A stretch of DNA of 35,985 nt from Acidimicrobiales bacterium (GTDB taxonomy: Bacteria; Actinomycetota; Acidimicrobiia; Acidimicrobiales; JAJPHE01). Location: assembly GCA_036273495.1 (NCBI GenBank), contig DASUHN010000226.1:1-35985 (forward strand), read 5' to 3'. The notes below the pieces were generated by a model, which was given only the letters and a program-made list of their open reading frames with translations, was not told where the DNA came from and did no database searches. Shown one piece after another: positions 22,970 to 35,985 of this stretch. Each line of letters opens with the position of its first letter. Positions within the stretch are counted from its first letter, which is position 1. The translations under genes and the position numbers were made by a program.

Positions 22970-23767
22970 TCAGCCGGCGAGCTGAACGAGGGCCCGGGAC
23001 ACCATGCGGCGGGCGTCCTCGGAGAGCATGGCCTTGGACCAGTAGAAGCCCTGGGCAAAGTCGCACCCGAGGTCCGACAGCCGGCCCAGCTGGTCGAGCG
23101 TCTCGACGCCCTCGGCCACCGCCTTCATCCCGAGCGTGTGGGCCAGGACCACGACGGCCTCGACGACGACGCTGTCGTGCTCGTCCCGGCACAGCCCGGC
23201 CACCAGGGTGCGGTCGATCTGCAGGTAGTGGACGCCGAGGCGGCGGAGCCGGCTGAGCGAGGAGAAGCCGGTGCCGAAGTTGTCGACGGCAATGCCGACC
23301 CCGAGGTCGCGCAGGGCCTCGACCGCCCGCACCGATGCGGGGGCCATGAGCGAGCTCTCAGTGAGCTCGACGGTCAACAGTTGGGCGGGAACGCCGTGCT
23401 CGGTCAGAGCCGACTCGACCGCACGGGGCAGGTGCTCGTCGACGACCTCCTGGGCGGACAGGTTCACCGACACGCCGACGTTGGCGTGGGGAGCCAGGTC
23501 CCGCCAGACGCCGACCTGGCGCACGGCCTCGTTGAGGACGAACTCGCCCAGCCGGCCGATCTCGGCGGTCTCGACCGCCAGGGCCAGGAAGTCCTTGGGC
23601 AGCAGCACGCCCCATGCGGGGTGGCGCCAGCGCACGAGCGCCTCGAAGCGGGAGAGGGCCCCGGTCGACAGGTCGAGCTGCGGCTGGTACCAGACCTCGA
23701 ACTCCCCCCGCTCCAGCGCAGCCTCGATGGCCCCCGGCAGGAGCGCCTGGTCCCGGTTTCTCTCCAT
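22970..23767 (-). CDS. Stand-alone EAL-domain protein (c-di-GMP phosphodiesterase fold, probably catalytically degenerate)
   Basis: YQPQ, FEALVRW (EAL), SVNLS, VELTES, VDNFGTGFSSLSRL, YLQIDRTLV and AEGVET..QGFYW. There is no GGDEF or sensor domain. 265 aa. Confidence 0.88.
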   Translation of the reverse strand: MERNRDQALLPGAIEAALERGEFEVWYQPQLDLSTGALSRFEALVRWRHPAWGVLLPKDFLALAVETAEIGRLGEFVLNEAVRQVGVWRDLAPHANVGVSVNLSAQEVVDEHLPRAVESALTEHGVPAQLLTVELTESSLMAPASVRAVEALRDLGVGIAVDNFGTGFSSLSRLRRLGVHYLQIDRTLVAGLCRDEHDSVVVEAVVVLAHTLGMKAVAEGVETLDQLGRLSDLGCDFAQGFYWSKAMLSEDARRMVSRALVQLAG

Positions 23768-29280: not shown

Positions 29281-30531
29281 CTACGTCATGCGGCCGTAGG
29301 CGGCGCCCGAGTACGCCGTCTCGGAGTGCTGGGTGTTGTCGAGACCCTCGTCCTCCTCGGCGGGTGACACGCGCAGTCGCATGACCGCGTTCACCGCCTT
29401 GCCCACGGCAAAGGTGGCGCCGAAGGCGTAGGCCATGGTCACGACGGAGGCGAGGGACTGCTGGCCGAGGAGGTGCAGCCCCCCGCCCGAACCCAGCCCG
29501 TCGTGCCCGGCCGGGTTGATGGCCGCGGCGGCGAAGACCCCCAGCAGCAGCATCCCCACCAGCCCGCCGACGCCGTGCACCGCCAGCACGTCGAGGGAGT
29601 CGTCATAGCCGAGCCGGAACTTGGCCTGCACCGCCAGCACGCAGATGATCCCGGCGGCCAGCCCGATCCCGATGGAGGGCAGGGTGCCGACGAACCCGGC
29701 GCACGGCGTGATCGCCACCATCCCCGCCACCGCCCCCGACGCGGCCCCGAGGGTCGTGGCGTGGCCGCCCCGGACCCGCTCGACCGCCACCCAGCCCATG
29801 AGGCCGGCGGCGGCGGCCAGCTGGGTGTTCATGAACGCCTGGGCGGCCACCGAGTTGGCGCCCAGGGCCGAGCCGGCGTTGAACCCGAACCAGCCGAACC
29901 ACAGGACCCCCGCCCCCATCATCGTGAGGGGAAGGGAGTGGGGACTCATCAGCTCGGGCCACCCCCGCCGGCGCCCCACCACCAGGGCGGCGGCCAGGGC
30001 CGAGAAGCCGGAGTTGATCTCCACCACCGTCCCGCCGGCGAAGTCCAGCACGCCGCGGTGGTAGAGCCACCCGCCCGGGCTGAACGCCCAGTGGGCGATC
30101 GGGGCGTACACGACCAACGACCACACGGAGATGAACACGACGAACGCCGGAAACCGCAACCGGTCGGCGGTGGCCCCGGTGATGAGGGCGGCGGTGATGA
30201 CGGCGAACATCATCTGGAAGGCCACGAACGCCAACGGCGGGATGGTGAGCTGGAAGCCCGGGACGCCGGCTCCGATGTGGCGGAGGCCAACCATGCTCAG
30301 GTTCCCGATCAACCCGCCCCCGGCGTCGGGCCCGAAGGCCAGGCTGAACCCGAACAGCACCCAGAGCACGCTCACCACGCCGATGCACGTGAACGACTGC
30401 ATCATCATGCCGAGCACGTGCTTGGCCCGGACCATCCCGCCGTAGAACAGGGCCAGCCCCGGGGTCATGAACAGCACCAGCGCCGTCGACCCGAGGACCC
30501 ACGCCGTGTCCCCTCCGCTCATCCGTCCCAC
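29281..30531 (-). CDS. amt: Ammonium transporter (Amt family)
   Basis: About 11 TM segments. Motifs FAVITAALITGATADR, LDFAGGTVVEINSG and LAVHGVGGLVGMLLLG. The start is GTG 30531 or ATG 30522. Confidence 0.9.
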   Translation of the reverse strand: MGRMSGGDTAWVLGSTALVLFMTPGLALFYGGMVRAKHVLGMMMQSFTCIGVVSVLWVLFGFSLAFGPDAGGGLIGNLSMVGLRHIGAGVPGFQLTIPPLAFVAFQMMFAVITAALITGATADRLRFPAFVVFISVWSLVVYAPIAHWAFSPGGWLYHRGVLDFAGGTVVEINSGFSALAAALVVGRRRGWPELMSPHSLPLTMMGAGVLWFGWFGFNAGSALGANSVAAQAFMNTQLAAAAGLMGWVAVERVRGGHATTLGAASGAVAGMVAITPCAGFVGTLPSIGIGLAAGIICVLAVQAKFRLGYDDSLDVLAVHGVGGLVGMLLLGVFAAAAINPAGHDGLGSGGGLHLLGQQSLASVVTMAYAFGATFAVGKAVNAVMRLRVSPAEEDEGLDNTQHSETAYSGAAYGRMT

Positions 30532-30660
30532 CGGGATGTGTTAGCCGACGATCACGTCCTTGCGAAAACGACGCAACGGGCCGCCGGGCCCACTCCCGAA
30601 GGAGGGACCACGGCGGCCCGGCGGATGACCCGCGGGGGGACGGGTCAGACCTGCTGCGGC

Positions 30661-32535
30661 TCAGAGCCAGGCGTCGGCGTTCCAGGAGGAGCCGTTCCAG
30701 CTCGACCCGTTCCAGGAGGAGCCGTTCCAGCTGCTCCCGTTCCAGCTGCTCCCGTTCCAGGAGGAGCCGTTCCACGAGCTGCCGTTCCAGGAGCTGCCGT
30801 TCCAGGAGGAGCCGTTCCAGACCATCCCGTTCCAGGACGAGCCGTTCCAGCTGGAGCCGTTCCACGAGCTGCCGTTCCACGAGCTGCCGTTCCAGCTGCT
30901 CCCGTTCCAGCTGCTCCCGTTCCAGGACGAGCCGTTCCAGCTGCTGCCGTTCCAGGAGGAGCCGTTGAACGAGCCGCCGTTCCAGCTCGACCCGTTCCAG
31001 GAGGAGCCGTTCCAACTCGAGCCGTTCCAGCTGCTCCCGTTCCACGAGCTGCCGTTCCAGGAGCTGCCCAGGTCCTGGACCGAGCCGGGGGTGGCGGACT
31101 CGGCGGCGGCGGCGGCGGTCTGGTCGTAGACCAGCTTGGGGCCGGTGGCGGCGTAGTAGGCGTTCAAGAAGCCGTGGCCCTCGACCAGGGGGTTGCCGAG
31201 CTCGGCGGGCATGGCGTTGCCGAGCAGGCGCCCCTTGATCTCATCGGGGCTGGCCGTGGGGTTGGCCGAACTGACCAGGGCGGCGGCCCCCGAGGTGATC
31301 GCAGCGGCGAAGCTGGTTCCCGAGCCCACGAAGTTGGCCTTGCCCACCACCGCTGTCGGGTTGGTGGCATAGATGGTCGAGCCGGGATCGGCCAGGCTGA
31401 TCACCGAGCGGCCCGGGGCCACCAGGTCGGGCTTCATCCAGCCGTCGAACTGGGTCGGGCCGACCGAGGAGAACGGGCAGGCCGCCCAGTTGGCCGGGTT
31501 GGGGCTGGCGTTGTCGGCGTAGGCGCCGACGGTGATGGCCAGGGGGTCGTCGCCGGGCGAGGTGATGGTGCCGTTGAACGGCCCGGAGTTGCCCGCCGAG
31601 ACCACGACTGTGATCCCGGCGTTCCACGCCGCCTCGACGGCCTGGTCGAGCGGCTCGGTGGCCGTGGGACCGGTCGGCATGGCCCCCAGCGAGAGGTTCA
31701 AGACGTTGATGGCGTACTTGCGCTGGTTCTTGACGGCGAAGCCGATGCCCTGGACGATCGTGGAGATCGTGCTGGCCCCGGTGGCCCCGGCCACCTTGAT
31801 CGACACCAGCTTGGCGCCGGGCGCCTCACCGGGGTACTGGCCCCCCGAGGCCGCCCCGTTGCCGGCGATGAGGCCGGCCACGAAGGTGCCGTGGCCGAAC
31901 TCGTCGGTCCAGGGCGAGCCGTTGCCGTTGACGGTGAGGTCCACGCCGGCGCGCTCACGGCCGGAGAAGTCCTTGAGGGAGCCGTTGATGCCGGTGTCGA
32001 GCACCGCCACGGTGGCGTTGGCGCCGGTGATGCCGGCCCTGGCGGCCTGGTCGGCCCCGGTGTCCTGGGTGAAGTAGCCGCTCGGGGGCGAGAAGGTGGT
32101 GGTGTCCGGGCAGCTGGCCGCGGCGTTGGCGGAGGGGGCGGCCTGGAAGGCCACCGGCTCGTCGGGGGTGACGGTGACGCCGTCGGCGCTGAGCTCGTCG
32201 ACCCAGTGCTTGGGCAGGCTGAGCGCCACCCCGTTGATCACGTCGAGGGACTTGGCCCCGAGCCCCTTGGGCAGCTTGGCCACCACGTCGGCCGCCGTCA
32301 TGTCGGCGGGCAGCTGGACGATCACCGCCTCGGGGGGACCGGCCTGGTCGGCGGCGGATCCGGCATCGCCGGCGGCGGCCAGGGTGGCGCCGGGATCGGC
32401 GCCCGGGTGGCTCTTCGGCGGCTTGGCGGCCGCCCAGGCCGGCGTGACCGCCAGCACCGAGAGCCCGCCGGCTGCGGCCGCCGCCGCCCAACGGGTTCCC
32501 CGGCGGCCCCACGACACTCCACGCTTGCTGTTCAT
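30661..32535 (-). CDS. Secreted subtilisin-like serine protease (peptidase S8, with an I9-like propeptide) carrying a C-terminal 26 x SSWNG pentapeptide repeat region
   Basis: Catalytic triad motifs VAVLDTGI (Asp), GHGTFVAG (His) and GTSFAAA (Ser). The signal-like N-terminus is RRGTRWAAAAAAGGLSVLAVTPAWAA. The start is ATG 32535 or TTG 32586. Confidence 0.88.
   Translation of the reverse strand: MNSKRGVSWGRRGTRWAAAAAAGGLSVLAVTPAWAAAKPPKSHPGADPGATLAAAGDAGSAADQAGPPEAVIVQLPADMTAADVVAKLPKGLGAKSLDVINGVALSLPKHWVDELSADGVTVTPDEPVAFQAAPSANAAASCPDTTTFSPPSGYFTQDTGADQAARAGITGANATVAVLDTGINGSLKDFSGRERAGVDLTVNGNGSPWTDEFGHGTFVAGLIAGNGAASGGQYPGEAPGAKLVSIKVAGATGASTISTIVQGIGFAVKNQRKYAINVLNLSLGAMPTGPTATEPLDQAVEAAWNAGITVVVSAGNSGPFNGTITSPGDDPLAITVGAYADNASPNPANWAACPFSSVGPTQFDGWMKPDLVAPGRSVISLADPGSTIYATNPTAVVGKANFVGSGTSFAAAITSGAAALVSSANPTASPDEIKGRLLGNAMPAELGNPLVEGHGFLNAYYAATGPKLVYDQTAAAAAESATPGSVQDLGSSWNGSSWNGSSWNGSSWNGSSWNGSSWNGGSFNGSSWNGSSWNGSSWNGSSWNGSSWNGSSWNGSSWNGSSWNGSSWNGMVWNGSSWNGSSWNGSSWNGSSWNGSSWNGSSWNGSSWNGSSWNGSSWNADAWL
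30676..31065 (-). repeat. 26 contiguous in-frame 15-nt units encoding (SSWNG)n
   Basis: Counted unit by unit on the sequence. N to C the units run SSWNG x6, GSFNG, SSWNG x9, MVWNG, SSWNG x8, SSWNA. TGG and AAC are invariant, while the Ser codons vary between units. Confidence 0.95.
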
Positions 32536-32705
32536 GGGGAGATGAACGGGTGTCCGGAAGACCGCCTTGAGAACACGGCGGGACAATCGGTCTTCGGTCG
32601 CAGCCGGCCTCCCCGGCAGGGGACCAAAGGTCCCACCGGAGGTCAGACTCCGGCTCTCGGACCGGGCCGGGGCACCCTGCGGCAGGCGTCCCTAACCTGC
32701 GCCCC

Positions 32706-33518
32706 GTGCCGACGACGGATGGGAAGCAGGGAAGGGGACGCCCGGGCCTGAGCCTGGACGGGGCCACGGTCGTGATCACCGGGGCGTCGAGGGGGATCGG
32801 GCGGGCCGTGGCCGTGCAGGCGGCCAGGCGGGGGGCCCGGGTGGGGCTGATCGCCCGCTCGGCGGCCGACCTCGAGAAGGTGCGGGGCGAGATCGGCGGC
32901 ACCAGCGCCACGGCCCCGGCCGACGTGGCCGACAGGGACCAGGTCGGGGCCGCCATCAGGTCGCTGGAGGAGGCGCTGGGCCCGACCGACGTCCTGGTGG
33001 CCAACGCCGGGATCGGCGCCTATGGCGCATTTTCCGACATTCCGGTCGACGAGGTCGAGCGGCTGGTCCGGGTCAACCTCCTCGGGACCGTCTATCCCCT
33101 GAAGGCGGTGCTGCCGGGGATGCTCGAGAGGGGCCGGGGCCACCTGGTGGTGGTCTCCTCCGTGGCGGGAAGGTTCGGGTCACCGTTCGAGGCCGCCTAC
33201 GCCGCCACCAAGTTCGGCCAGACCGGCCTGGCCGAGGCCATGTCCGTCGAGCTGGAGGCCCGGGGCGTCGGGGTGTCGATCGTCAATCCGGGCGTGGTCG
33301 ACACCGACTTCTTCGCGACCCGGGGCCACGCCTACGACCGGCCCTTCCCGAAGCCGATCTCCGCCGACCGGGTGGCGGCGGCGGTGGTCGGGGCGGTGGA
33401 GTCGGGCCGGCGGGAGGTCTTCGTCCCCCGCTGGTTCAAGTACGCCCTGGCGGTGCGCCACCTCTCCCCCGGTCTCTACGCCCGCGGAACCCGACGGAGC
33501 TTCAAGGACCAGCTGTGA
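32706..33518 (+). CDS. SDR-family oxidoreductase
   Basis: VVITGASRGIGRA and YAATKFGQ (YxxxK). GTG start at 32706. 270 aa. Confidence 0.85.
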   Translation: MPTTDGKQGRGRPGLSLDGATVVITGASRGIGRAVAVQAARRGARVGLIARSAADLEKVRGEIGGTSATAPADVADRDQVGAAIRSLEEALGPTDVLVANAGIGAYGAFSDIPVDEVERLVRVNLLGTVYPLKAVLPGMLERGRGHLVVVSSVAGRFGSPFEAAYAATKFGQTGLAEAMSVELEARGVGVSIVNPGVVDTDFFATRGHAYDRPFPKPISADRVAAAVVGAVESGRREVFVPRWFKYALAVRHLSPGLYARGTRRSFKDQL

Positions 33519-34390
33519 GGGTCGGGGTGGGGCTGCCCATGAAGGCGCTGCCCCGGGACGAGCTGGTGACCTTCGCCCGCAAGGTCGAGGACGGGCCGTT
33601 CGACAGCATCAGCCTGGGCCAGCGCCTGACCTTCGAGAGCAACGACCCGATGATTGCCCTCACGTTCGTGGCCGCCATCACCGAGCGGATCCGCCTGCTG
33701 ACGTCGGTGCTGTGCCTGCCCTTCCACAAGGAGGGGGTCACGGCCCAGCAGGCCGCCACCCTCGACCGGCTGTCGCTCGGCCGCTTCAGCTTCGGGGTGG
33801 GGCTGGGGGGCCGTCCCGCCGACTTTGCCGTGGCGCCCGCCGAGTGGGCGGGGCGGGGCCGGCGCTTCGAGGAGCAGCTCCTGGCGATGAAGCGGGCCTG
33901 GCGGGGCGAGGCTCCGTTCCCGGGCACCGAGCCCGTCGGCCCCTCACCGCTCACACCCGGAGGGCCCGAGCTCATCGTGGGCGGGATGGCCCCGGCCGCC
34001 CTCGAGCGGGCGGGACGGGTGGCCGACGGCATCCGCAGCTTCAGCTTCTCGACCGACGTGCGCCAGCACCTCGACCGCCTGGCCGTCACCGCGGCGGCGT
34101 GGGAACAGGCGGGCCGGGAGGGACGCCCCCGGTTGATCACCGCCACCCACTTTGCCCTCGGGCCCGACGCCCGGCAGTCCTACGAGGAGCACGTCCAGCG
34201 GTACTACGGCTATTCCGCCGAGCTGATGGCCGAGGCGCTCTCGGGTGATGCGCCCACGTCACCCGACGCCATCCGGGCCACCATCCGCCGCTTCGCCGAC
34301 GCAGGGGTCGACGAGCTGGTGTTCACCGCCACCACGTCGGACACCATGGACTCCCTCGACCGGCTGGCGCAGGCGGTGGCCGGCGCCTGA
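33515..34390 (+). CDS. Luciferase-like monooxygenase (LLM-class, possibly F420-dependent) oxidoreductase
   Basis: GTG 33515 overlaps the SDR TGA. MRVGVGLP.., ITERIRLLTSVLCLP and TLDRLSLGRFSFGVGLGG are typical of LLM TIM-barrel proteins. 291 aa. Confidence 0.8.
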   Translation: MRVGVGLPMKALPRDELVTFARKVEDGPFDSISLGQRLTFESNDPMIALTFVAAITERIRLLTSVLCLPFHKEGVTAQQAATLDRLSLGRFSFGVGLGGRPADFAVAPAEWAGRGRRFEEQLLAMKRAWRGEAPFPGTEPVGPSPLTPGGPELIVGGMAPAALERAGRVADGIRSFSFSTDVRQHLDRLAVTAAAWEQAGREGRPRLITATHFALGPDARQSYEEHVQRYYGYSAELMAEALSGDAPTSPDAIRATIRRFADAGVDELVFTATTSDTMDSLDRLAQAVAGA

Positions 34391-34414
34391 CGGCGCCCCC
34401 CTGGCCGGGGCCGG

Positions 34415-35985
34415 TCAGTGGCGGTGACGGTGGCTGCCGCTGCCGACGGTCGACGATGTCGAAGACGTTGACGAGGTCGAAGACGTTGACGAGGTCGAAG
34501 ACGTTGACGAGGTCGAAGACGTTGACGAGGTCGAAGACGTCGACGACCTCGAGGACGTCGACGAGCCCGATGAGGTCGTAGAGGTCGTCGGGGCGCGCAC
34601 CGGTCGCGCCGTGGTGCTCGTGGGTGCGGCGGCCGACGTCGACGTGGTGGTCGGACGGTGCCGGCGGGCCTGGGTGGTCGACGTGGTGGTTGGGGCCACC
34701 GTCGTCGAGGTCGTCGACGTCACCGGGTGACGGCGGTGGTGCGAGCCCGACCGGGTCGTGGCGGTCGTGTCACCCGCTCCGGTGGTCGAGGTCGGGGTCG
34801 GGCCCCCGGTGGTGCTGGTCGGGCCCGCTCCGGGGTGCTGGCGATGGTGCCGGGAGGGGCCGGTGGGAGTGGTCTGGTCGGGCGCCCCGGGATGGGGCTT
34901 CCTGACCCCCTTGGCCGGCTCGTTCCTGGCCGGGGTGCTCTTGGCCGGGGTGCTCTTGGGCGGGGCGTGCCGGGCCGGATGGGCCCCGGCCCCGCCCGCC
35001 ACCACCGGCAGGCCCGGGCCCGAGCTCGACACGTCGGGGATCTCCGGCCGGGTGGCCCCCACGAATGCGGGGCTGAAGCCGGCCACCGGCTCGATCCTGA
35101 CCACGGCCCCGGTGTGCGGGGCGTCGATCATCTTCCCGGCCCCGACGTAGATCCCCACGTGCTCCACGCCGCGCGGACCGGACCCGAAGAACACGAGGTC
35201 TCCGGCGTACAGCTCGGCTCCCGCCGGCAGACGGGGACCGGCGTCGTACTGGGACTGGGCCACCCGGGGCATGTCGATGCCCGCCTCGGCCATGACCCAC
35301 TGCACCAGACCGGAGCAGTCGAAGCCGACCTTGGGGTTCTCCCCGCCCCACACGTAGGGCGTGCCGAGGAAGGCCTCGGCATCGTGGACGATCACCGAGC
35401 CGAGGCCGATGCTCCCCGACGCCGTCGGCTCCTCACCGGCCCGGGCCTGGTACTGCCCGGCGAGGGCCAGCACGGCCGACACGTAGGCGGCGGAGTGGTT
35501 GTAGGCGAACACGGCGCCGTAGAGGCCCGCCGGGCTGCCGGCGCCGTCGGCGCACAGGAGCCGGGCCGCCGACCAGATGGCGTCAGGCGAGTCGTACGGG
35601 GAGGGCGGGGCCGCGCCCCCCGGGGCCACGACGCCGTAGGCGGCGAACGTCCACGGCAGGAACTGCATCGGCCCCTCGGCCCCGGCGTAGTTGGCGCCCG
35701 AGTGCACGCCGGGCAGCGAGGACTGGCCGTTGTCGCTCTCGACCGTGCCGATGGCGGCCAGCACCGCCCAGGACAGACCGGGGCAGGTGGTGGATGCCTC
35801 CTCGTACCAGGAGAGGTAGTCGTCCGGTATCCCGGTCAGATGGGCGGGAGCCGAGGCGGGCCGGGGCGGCGGCGCCGGGGCGGGCGTGCCGGCCGGAGCC
35901 GGAGCGGGGCTCGGAGGAGGCGGCGGGGCCGGCGGGAGATGGGTCATCAGGCCGTCGACGTCCTCCACCTTCCACCCCGAGCCGT
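34415..35985 (-). CDS. Bifunctional cell-wall hydrolase: lytic transglycosylase (SLT-like) domain plus NlpC/P60 (C40) peptidase domain plus a ~200-aa P/T/S-rich tail. The 5' end probably runs off the window.
   Basis: SLT-like: AAIGTVESDNGQS..GPMQFLPWTF. NlpC/P60: LGTPYVWGGE..GFDCSGLVQW..HVGIYVG..IDAPH. The frame stays open to nt 35985, and the first in-window start is GTG 35968. No signal peptide is seen in the visible N-terminus. Confidence 0.85.
   Translation of the reverse strand, partial: GSGWKVEDVDGLMTHLPPAPPPPPSPAPAPAGTPAPAPPPRPASAPAHLTGIPDDYLSWYEEASTTCPGLSWAVLAAIGTVESDNGQSSLPGVHSGANYAGAEGPMQFLPWTFAAYGVVAPGGAAPPSPYDSPDAIWSAARLLCADGAGSPAGLYGAVFAYNHSAAYVSAVLALAGQYQARAGEEPTASGSIGLGSVIVHDAEAFLGTPYVWGGENPKVGFDCSGLVQWVMAEAGIDMPRVAQSQYDAGPRLPAGAELYAGDLVFFGSGPRGVEHVGIYVGAGKMIDAPHTGAVVRIEPVAGFSPAFVGATRPEIPDVSSSGPGLPVVAGGAGAHPARHAPPKSTPAKSTPARNEPAKGVRKPHPGAPDQTTPTGPSRHHRQHPGAGPTSTTGGPTPTSTTGAGDTTATTRSGSHHRRHPVTSTTSTTVAPTTTSTTQARRHRPTTTSTSAAAPTSTTARPVRAPTTSTTSSGSSTSSRSSTSSTSSTSSTSSTSSTSSTSSTSSTSSTSSTVGSGSHRHRH
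34459..34566 (-). repeat. 18-nt tandem repeat (4 perfect plus 2 diverged units) encoding (TSSTSS)n in the hydrolase tail
   Basis: GTCGAAGACGTTGACGAG occurs at 34459, 34477, 34495 and 34513. Diverged units follow at 34531 and 34549. Confidence 0.9.

Follow-up and report, generated by a model that had tools for sequence, protein, structure and literature searches.

The protease gene and its C-terminal array

The window considered here, a 35,985-nucleotide stretch of DNA from an uncultured Acidimicrobiales bacterium (assembly GCA_036273495.1, contig DASUHN010000226.1, positions 1 to 35,985), carries a gene for a subtilisin-like protease of the S8 family that ends in a long tandem array of tryptophan (Trp)-centered pentapeptides. 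The protease itself is ordinary and the novelty sits in its tail. The open reading frame (ORF) lies at 30661..32586 on the minus strand, as do all features of the gene given below, and encodes 641 residues when read from the first TTG (32586), from which residues are numbered throughout. On sequence grounds an ATG at 32535, giving a 624-residue protein, is the more likely start, because MNSKRGVSWGRR of the window lines up with the start of the homologue P0002 (MNKQRGVSWGR). From the ORF list, the homologue N-termini and the homologue search, the whole gene, i.e., the prepro-subtilase with its Trp pentapeptide array, is placed at 30661..32535.

Repeat finding and unit-by-unit translation locate 26 tandem units of 15 nucleotides, or five residues, at 30676..31065 (residues 508-637). 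From the N- to the C-terminus they read SSWNG six times, GSFNG, SSWNG nine times, MVWNG, SSWNG eight times and SSWNA, with no insertion or deletion, which amounts to 23 SSWNG units together with one each of GSFNG, MVWNG, and SSWNA. A terminal partial unit, DAWL, and the TGA stop codon follow at 30661..30675, the last Trp being the penultimate residue. Tandem Repeats Finder gives a period of 15, 26.1 copies and a score of 297, with nucleotide matches of only 75%; serine codons (AGC, TCC, TCG, AGT) and glycine codons (GGC, GGG) are mixed along the array and the protein units are almost uniform. The 134-residue tail consists of 49 Ser, 26 Trp, 26 Asn, 26 Gly and 7 other residues, and has a single charged residue. 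Considering this density of Trp, and that the other 507 residues of the protein hold only 8, a chance origin of the array can be excluded. No LPXTG motif and no hydrophobic or transmembrane (TM) helix can be read C-terminal to the array, the protein ending in SSWNADAWL. An earlier note made from the DNA letters had described precisely these 26 units, the DAWL end and the stop, as well as the lack of a TM or sortase signal behind them, and translation bears it out exactly. A 1092-residue ORF on the opposite strand (29473-32751, +), which reads PVPGGAVPAA... over the array and spans both the ammonium transporter gene and the protease gene, was dismissed as a high-GC by-product and not a gene, because the GC content of the window is 72.7% and the conserved frame is that of the S8 protease on the minus strand.

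Upstream of the array the protein has the parts expected of the S8 protease announced in the earlier note. A predicted signal peptide, MNSKRGVSWGRRGTRW-AAAAAAGGLSVLAV-TPAWA followed by AA, can be read at 32431..32535 (residues 18-52), with an Arg-rich n-region that includes the motif RGVSWGR, a hydrophobic core and an AxA site; it would be of the Sec or Tat type. An I9-like N-terminal propeptide of β-α-β-β-α-β topology covers residues ~78-146 (32149..32355), as seen with AlphaFold2 (predicted local distance difference test, pLDDT, 89-96) and Foldseek. The Peptidase S8 catalytic domain extends over residues 188-458 (31213..32025), as placed by Pfam, and matches PF00082 with an E-value of 3.6e-41 and 141.8 bits against a cutoff of 21.8; the same Pfam match is found in 81/81 family members. 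The catalytic triad is formed by D197 (DTG, 31996-31998), H232 (HGT, 31891-31893), and S425 (GTS, 31312-31314), with N333 as the oxyanion residue, and all four are invariant in the 81-sequence alignment. Propeptide and catalytic core are modeled with pLDDT >90. A post-catalytic segment with an Ala-rich linker, ending in ...AAAAAESATPGSVQDLG, occupies residues 459-507 (31066..31212) and leads into the array. The product is presumably an exported, active prepro-subtilase with an intact catalytic set.

The n-region motif R-G-V-S-W-G-R, with KRGVSWG at 32506-32526 of the window (residues 21-27), looks like one repeat unit. It can also be found in the N-termini of P0002, P0003, P0004 (two copies), P0010, P0013, P0110, and L113, with YGVTWGG in Blastococcus, and a strict pattern retrieves it in 14 of 120 homologue N-termini. 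Its context is possibly a Tat-like twin-arginine (RR) one.

Among characterized proteins, prepro-subtilisins with a C-terminal extension are close counterparts. Unprocessed Pro-Tk-SP (3afg) heads the Foldseek list (E 2e-28; 419 columns aligned, propeptide included) and is also matched best by sequence among PDB entries (E 4e-49). Tk-SP from Thermococcus kodakarensis (3afg/9ues) and subtilisin E share with the window protein a signal peptide, an I9-like propeptide and a D-H-S core. However, the C-domain of Tk-SP is a folded β-jelly-roll, whereas the window protein has a 130-residue Trp/Gly/Ser/Asn array with no predicted fold. The closest NCBIfam model is that of the mycosins of the type VII secretion system (T7SS; TIGR03921), which are likewise actinobacterial, envelope-associated subtilases and give the best NCBIfam score, 139.8 bits over residues 180-497, i.e., half of the 278.75 cutoff. 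Unlike the TM-anchored mycosins, the window protein, with its score under the cutoff, has no C-terminal TM helix. In contrast to mycosin loci, no ESX or T7SS genes lie near it: its neighbors are an ammonium transporter, short-chain dehydrogenase/reductase (SDR) genes and an NlpC/P60-type hydrolase, and those of its relatives GGDEF-EAL or Tad genes.

The array in independent assemblies and across the family

Short tandem repeats are liable to collapse or expansion in short-read assemblies, and the copy number varies among close relatives of the window gene (26, 27, and 16 units). Together with the many MEWNG-type "proteins" in databases that are translated human (GGAAT)n satellite, this speaks for an artifact of assembly or annotation, or for translated low-complexity DNA without meaning. 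However, an independent Joint Genome Institute (JGI) contig, L121, shares 92% nucleotide identity with the window over 30571-35985 and has an array of the same type, in which GSFNG stands at the identical unit position, MVWNG is shifted one unit later and 27 units are present instead of 26. Between the two arrays 40 of 405 nucleotides differ and no amino acid does. Many of these differences are AGC/TCN serine switches, a pattern that suggests shuffling of units inside the array and selection at the level of the protein sequence. A metagenome-assembled genome (MAG) from GTDB, L002, has a 16-unit array with the identical MVWNG...SSWNA-DAWL ending, and a GLSWN array of ~15 units can be found in a cultured isolate, Blastococcus sp. 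CT_GayMR19 (137x coverage assembly). The suspicion of an assembly collapse or expansion, raised in the earlier note as a possible objection, is countered by independent assemblies in which the array recurs with the landmark units in it, and by its presence in an isolate genome. The array is moreover in frame with an intact S8 gene, its scrambled codons are not those of a simple DNA repeat, and it is conserved in more than 120 homologues at only 46-96% identity. An artifact has a probability close to nil, the exact copy number alone being provisional.

The family was defined as the best 120 homologues (E<=1e-159), hence 121 proteins with the window protein included. These homologues, which are 46-96% identical and come mostly from Acidimicrobiales MAGs, have a C-terminal xxWxG array in 120/120 cases, with unit types such as GSSWN, GSAWT, GAAWN, GSQWT, GAGWN, GNSWN, GTSWN, and others. 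Over the 121 proteins, arrays range from 5 to 49 units (median 24). In-phase units have W at the center in 100% and G two residues after it in 92%; position 1 is S or A, position 2 is S (48%) or A (36%), and position 4 is N (72%), T (19%), or S (5%). Charge is almost absent, homologue arrays having a median of 0.7% charged residues. The end of the protein is fixed as well, since 118/121 proteins stop exactly one residue past the last in-phase W (W-N, W-S, W-T, W-L, W-A, etc.). A landmark unit, M[VTA]W[NDG]G, is present in 19 proteins and in 13/19 lies 11 units from the C-terminus, a spacing that holds though the units upstream of it range from 4 to 16. The array is therefore a hallmark of a large family and not peculiar to the window gene, and it is under strong conservation, family-wide and in extracytoplasmic contexts. 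The idea that the units serve as N-glycosylation sequons (N-G-S) was discarded, as many orthologues have GSAWT or GAAWN units without a sequon.

Relationship to pentapeptide repeats and predicted conformation

The tail matches no Pfam or NCBIfam family above threshold, in line with the earlier note, which had recognized no named domain in it: no NCBIfam model matches it when the protein is scanned, and the only Pfam match to the tail, Pentapeptide_4, remains below threshold (14.4 bits against a cutoff of 38). Among 81 relatives at E<=0.01, Pentapeptide_4 is matched in 3 and Pentapeptide_2 in 2. With the tail as query, the PDB sequence search returns mostly pentapeptide proteins, namely QnrB1, AhQnr and Rfr32, at the non-significant E-values of 0.05-0.6; these proteins carry an occasional W at the position aligned to the W of the tail. 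The known wall- or glycan-binding repeats CW_binding_1, LysM, SLH, GW/SH3b, and PPC have no Pfam or NCBIfam match at E<=1 in the window protein or at E<=0.01 in the 81 relatives. A search of the literature on the motif, on Trp-type pentapeptide repeats and on Acidimicrobiia subtilases, cyclic di-GMP (c-di-GMP) or Tad pili found nothing relevant.

The array has the periodicity of a pentapeptide repeat, in uninterrupted five-residue tandem units. It departs from the consensus A(D/N)LXX, or [STAV][DN][LF][STR][G], in its central W and in a residue other than D/N at i-1, and only i-2 (S/A) and i+2 (G) fit. Two observations place Trp at the central "i" position otherwise taken by L or F. First, the F of unit 7 (GSFNG) is in phase with the W of neighboring units. 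Second, the xxWxG array of protein P0196 gives way, without a shift of register, to eight SDFNG-type units, which score above the PF00805 threshold with 35.9 bits; past these units W, F, and Y alternate in phase. Pentapeptide proteins (PF00805/PF13599; e.g., MfpA, Qnr, and Rfr32) resemble the tail in their five-residue tandem organization, in which the residue at i-2 is small, the one at i is large and either hydrophobic or aromatic, and i+2 is rich in Gly. They differ from it in that the tail has a Trp center instead of L/F, S/A instead of D/N at i-1 and units that are almost identical, and in that the tail is extracytoplasmic and fused to a protease, whereas the characterized Qnr and MfpA are cytoplasmic DNA mimics. 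The loose fit to the pentapeptide template proposed in the earlier note thus holds, through sub-threshold Pfam and PDB matches and a W in phase with F/L. Judged from the amino acid pattern, the tail can be regarded as a Trp-centered variant of the pentapeptide repeat, G-[S/A]-[S/A]-W-[N/T], a description that applies to sequence and does not demonstrate membership of the fold. It represents an undescribed and widespread repeat class without a database model, the nearest known kind being the pentapeptide repeat.

The earlier note had gone further and suggested a right-handed quadrilateral β-helix with stacked Trp, for which the structure predictions give no support. With the 81-sequence alignment, AlphaFold2 keeps pLDDT at 82-96 up to ~residue 520, so that the linker and the first 2-3 units (~84) are modeled as ordered against the catalytic domain, and then drops to ~28-30 over residues 527-641, with no secondary structure. 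The tail modeled alone reaches a mean pLDDT of 47.6 and a predicted template modeling score (pTM) of 0.31, with weak 5-periodic β bridges. Foldseek finds no match with an E-value below 4 for this weak model of the isolated tail, and its non-significant list consists mostly of β-solenoids, including the pentapeptide domain of SV2A. An autocorrelation of unit types over 115 arrays decays monotonically with no peak at lag 2, 3, or 4, and therefore does not indicate how many units make up a turn.

An Rfr-type β-helix of ~6.5 coils with Trp stacked inside, which could act as a rigid rod, a spacer or a surface mimic, would account for the strict five-residue period, for W being in phase with F in unit 7 and in the in-register switch of P0196, for pentapeptide proteins making up most of the PDB sequence matches and Pentapeptide_4 appearing in 3/81 family members, and for the 5-periodic bridges of the single-sequence model with its solenoid-rich Foldseek list. 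However, canonical pentapeptide proteins are normally predicted confidently by AlphaFold2, and the low pLDDT and pTM values of the tail, Pfam scores far under cutoff, a Foldseek search with no significant match and the missing lag-4 peak all speak against it; four Trp per coil would also be bulkier than the L/F core of known structures. Such a helix is consequently considered doubtful. The tail could be a β-solenoid-like rod or an extended, poorly ordered chain, and a chain with exposed Trp appears at least as likely as a Trp-ladder β-helix.

The array in other proteins

A HMMER search with the tail over 1.84 billion representatives yields 6009 matches at E<=1e-3 and 486 at E<=1e-10, counts that are inflated by low-complexity matches and by translated human (GGAAT)n satellite (MEWNG, MAWHG, VVWCG). 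Of the top 149 matches, 52 contain a genuine array with 10 or more units, and ~40 of these are S8 proteases with the array at the C-terminus. A scan of GTDB genome DNA with the pattern (TGGAAYGG N7)x5, in which ~40% of the loci were human satellite and were filtered out, finds bacterial cases mostly in Acidimicrobiales, Acidimicrobiaceae, and Ilumatobacteraceae, with outliers in Blastococcus, Kineosporiaceae, Nitriliruptoria, and Streptosporangiaceae. A word-index protein search with the tail alone came back empty, presumably for lack of low-complexity words in the index.

The satellite deserves mention on its own account. Many of the short contigs with low coverage that stand in "bacterial" isolate assemblies come from human (GGAAT)n satellite (MEWNG/HEWNG) and match any W-N-G query of period five. 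The loci concerned are L003-L006, L008, L014, L017, L026-L028, L030, L037-L039, L042-L044, L055, L060, L072-L074, L077, L089, L092, L093, L096, L099, L103, L112, L118, and others, and satellite-derived database "proteins" include P0134, P0186, and P0204 (MEWNG, HEWNG, MAWHG, VVWCG repeats).

Genuine arrays can be found in several arrangements. In the S8 relatives P0163, P0203, and L035 (from a Thermoplasmata archaeon), the array lies between the propeptide and the catalytic domain. In the Myxococcota lipoproteins L063, L015, and L119 it stands right behind the lipobox, ahead of an ADYC domain, and in the Firmicute-like proteins P0141, P0196, P0222, and P0264 right behind the signal peptide. 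The small proteins L033, L050, and L091 consist of a signal peptide and the array. A eukaryotic adhesion G-protein-coupled receptor (GPCR), P0121 (1154 residues), has 93 QVWNG units before the GPS motif of its GPS-7tm_2 architecture. All these settings are extracytoplasmic.

This distribution bears on the possibility that the tail is a C-terminal pro-region, aiding export and folding or keeping the enzyme latent (e.g., with Trp in the S1/S4 pockets), that is trimmed afterward. Secreted subtilases such as aqualysin I and Tk-SP commonly shed a C-terminal extension as they mature, Pro-Tk-SP is the closest solved structure, and AlphaFold2 orders the first 2-3 units against the catalytic domain (pLDDT ~84). 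Subtilisins favor large hydrophobic P1 residues, and the tail is therefore a plausible substrate of its own protease. In contrast, a disposable tail needs neither 5-49 near-identical units with invariant W and G nor a fixed end past the last W, and the array is also present in proteins without a protease domain. A pro-region is on these grounds unlikely.

Gene neighborhood

In the relatives, the protease gene is very often followed by a gene for a membrane protein of c-di-GMP metabolism, a conserved neighborhood that the earlier note had missed. Among 36 related loci with enough downstream sequence, a GGDEF-EAL gene begins ~0-110 nucleotides past the protease stop, on the same strand, in 31 (2 of these matches being weak). 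The encoded partner combines a polytopic-membrane N-terminus with PAS or GAF, GGDEF, and EAL domains, an architecture confirmed by Pfam in L122, L123, L124, and the Blastococcus locus L113. According to TM scans its N-terminus has 4-6 helices with loops of <=54 residues and no large external domain, and the GGDEF motif is intact. The cassette can be found at L001, L007, L010, L011, L013, L020-L024, L029, L041, L045, L054, L056, L058, L061, L068, L081, L085, L087, L110, L111, L113 (cultured Blastococcus), and L122-L124. Some MAGs have two such cassettes whose unit types differ, e.g., GAGWN and GSSWN in MAG SMAG_U9929. In the two closest relatives of the window gene, L121 and L002, a Tad pilus cluster (RcpC, CpaE, TadA/B/C, two TadE, and TadG) follows the protease gene, and the Tad/Flp cluster is complete at 9073-16761 of L121. 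GGDEF-EAL and Tad neighbors point to surface or biofilm physiology.

The window itself is arranged differently downstream. A terminator-like GC hairpin followed by a T-run lies ~67 nucleotides past the protease stop (30575..30594, -), and synteny with L121 ceases there, ~90 nucleotides past the stop (30571). Upstream, the SDR, luciferase-like, and NlpC/P60 genes are kept in synteny between the window and L121. No Tad genes were found in the window. The sole window match to GGDEF-EAL queries is a 265-residue ORF at 22970-23767 (-), ~7 kb from the protease gene, which is 46% identical to L123_up over 230 residues, the match being confined to the EAL region. The NlpC/P60-type hydrolase ORF (34415-35968, -) runs off the window end and terminates in a Thr/Ser/Pro-rich region; an 18-bp tandem repeat there (34452-34565, 6-7 copies, 88-93% matches) encodes a run of (SST)n, after which comes HRHRH. 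The idea of a ribosomally synthesized and post-translationally modified peptide (RiPP) with its tailoring enzyme was dropped, no such genes being present beside the protease gene in the window or in four annotated relatives.

The association with a polytopic GGDEF-EAL protein invites the hypothesis that the tail is a self-processed polyprecursor, in which cleavage behind every Trp by the S8 domain would set free pentapeptides (e.g., NGSSW) that signal to the putatively co-transcribed GGDEF-EAL protein. The units are uniform in amino acid sequence although their codons are scrambled, they differ between orthologues and between paralogous cassettes such as those of SMAG_U9929, the proteins end in W-x and the putative sensor directly follows the protease in 31/36 loci. 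The Phr pentapeptides of Bacillus, which are released by secreted subtilisins, provide a precedent. However, the adjacent sensor is absent from the window gene and its two closest relatives, homogeneous units are also expected from recombination within the array, and arrays in lipoproteins, an adhesion GPCR and non-proteases argue for a structural or adhesive module instead. The hypothesis is accordingly held to be very unlikely. Distinctly unlikely, too, is the broader proposal that the array and the polytopic GGDEF-EAL protein form an actinobacterial signaling pair, the sensor reading either a species- or cassette-specific pentapeptide cue cleaved off after Trp or the tail itself at the membrane interface.

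The neighborhood also recalls LapG and LapD from Pseudomonas, in that the gene of an exported protease is linked to that of a membrane GGDEF-EAL protein in a surface or biofilm setting. Yet LapG is a Cys protease of another fold, and LapD combines a periplasmic output domain with degenerate GGDEF/EAL domains, whereas the partner here is polytopic with short loops and an intact GGDEF motif, and the window gene has no partner. The idea of a LapD-like capture loses weight given the short-loop polytopic N-termini of the partners, and these N-termini, the different protease class and the missing partner in the window speak against a LapG-LapD-type pair.

A possible role at the cell envelope

The reading tentatively favored here, at a probability of roughly 0.4, is that the tail is an uncharged Trp-display module which keeps the protease at the cell envelope or matrix or directs it there. 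The array would be a non-catalytic, nearly uncharged, extracytoplasmic module with one Trp per five residues on display, and may work as a multivalent "sticky" tail that holds to the membrane interface or to wall or matrix polymers, with self-association possibly contributing. It would in this way replace the TM anchor or sorting signal that the protease otherwise lacks. This retention tail is favored because an uncharged, Trp-studded, periodic segment recurs in terminal or tether positions outside the cytoplasm, because the protease has no other anchor and because of the c-di-GMP and pilus setting. The summed interfacial free energy of the tail is ~ -31 kcal/mol on the scale of Wimley and White (1996), which makes anchoring at the membrane interface physically plausible. 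Trp residues stacked on glycans, or a tail that associates with itself, would also achieve retention. The retention or adhesion role, any binding partner and the conformation of the tail are inferred.

Aromatic "sticker" arrays, such as GW/WG Argonaute hooks, FG-nucleoporins and low-complexity aromatic-rich kinked segments (LARKS, e.g., GYNGFG), are multivalent weak binders. They offer a functional analogy, with a lone aromatic residue amid G/S/N, many repeats, nearly no charge and predicted disorder. In contrast to the array described here, which is bacterial, extracytoplasmic, carried on an enzyme and strictly spaced by five residues, they are eukaryotic, intracellular and irregular, and no homology is implied.

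Several points weigh against a retention tail. The reading requires exposed Trp, while AlphaFold2 predicts no confident structure for the tail. In the window, a terminator and an ammonium transporter gene (29281-30531, -) lie downstream of the protease gene, which adjoins no c-di-GMP gene, and the contextual argument therefore comes from the relatives. The position of the array between propeptide and catalytic domain in P0163, P0203, and L035 would suit a generic spacer equally well. Finally, secreted subtilases often lose their C-terminal extension on maturation, in which case the tail would be absent from the active enzyme.

Biological significance

A strictly 5-periodic module with 20% Trp is common to abundant Acidimicrobiia of soil and water, yet it has been missed by Pfam and NCBIfam and is opaque to AlphaFold2. 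Databases have no family model for the array, and contamination by human (GGAAT)n satellite pollutes motif searches. Resolving the tail would either extend the pentapeptide fold to an all-Trp core or reveal a new kind of extracellular aromatic tether. If the protease and the GGDEF-EAL protein do form a signaling pair, it would tie proteolysis outside the cell to c-di-GMP and to attachment to surfaces (Tad pili). Since the array marks a conserved cassette of protease and GGDEF-EAL genes, it provides a handle on the coupling between proteolysis, c-di-GMP and surface life in mostly uncultured actinobacteria.

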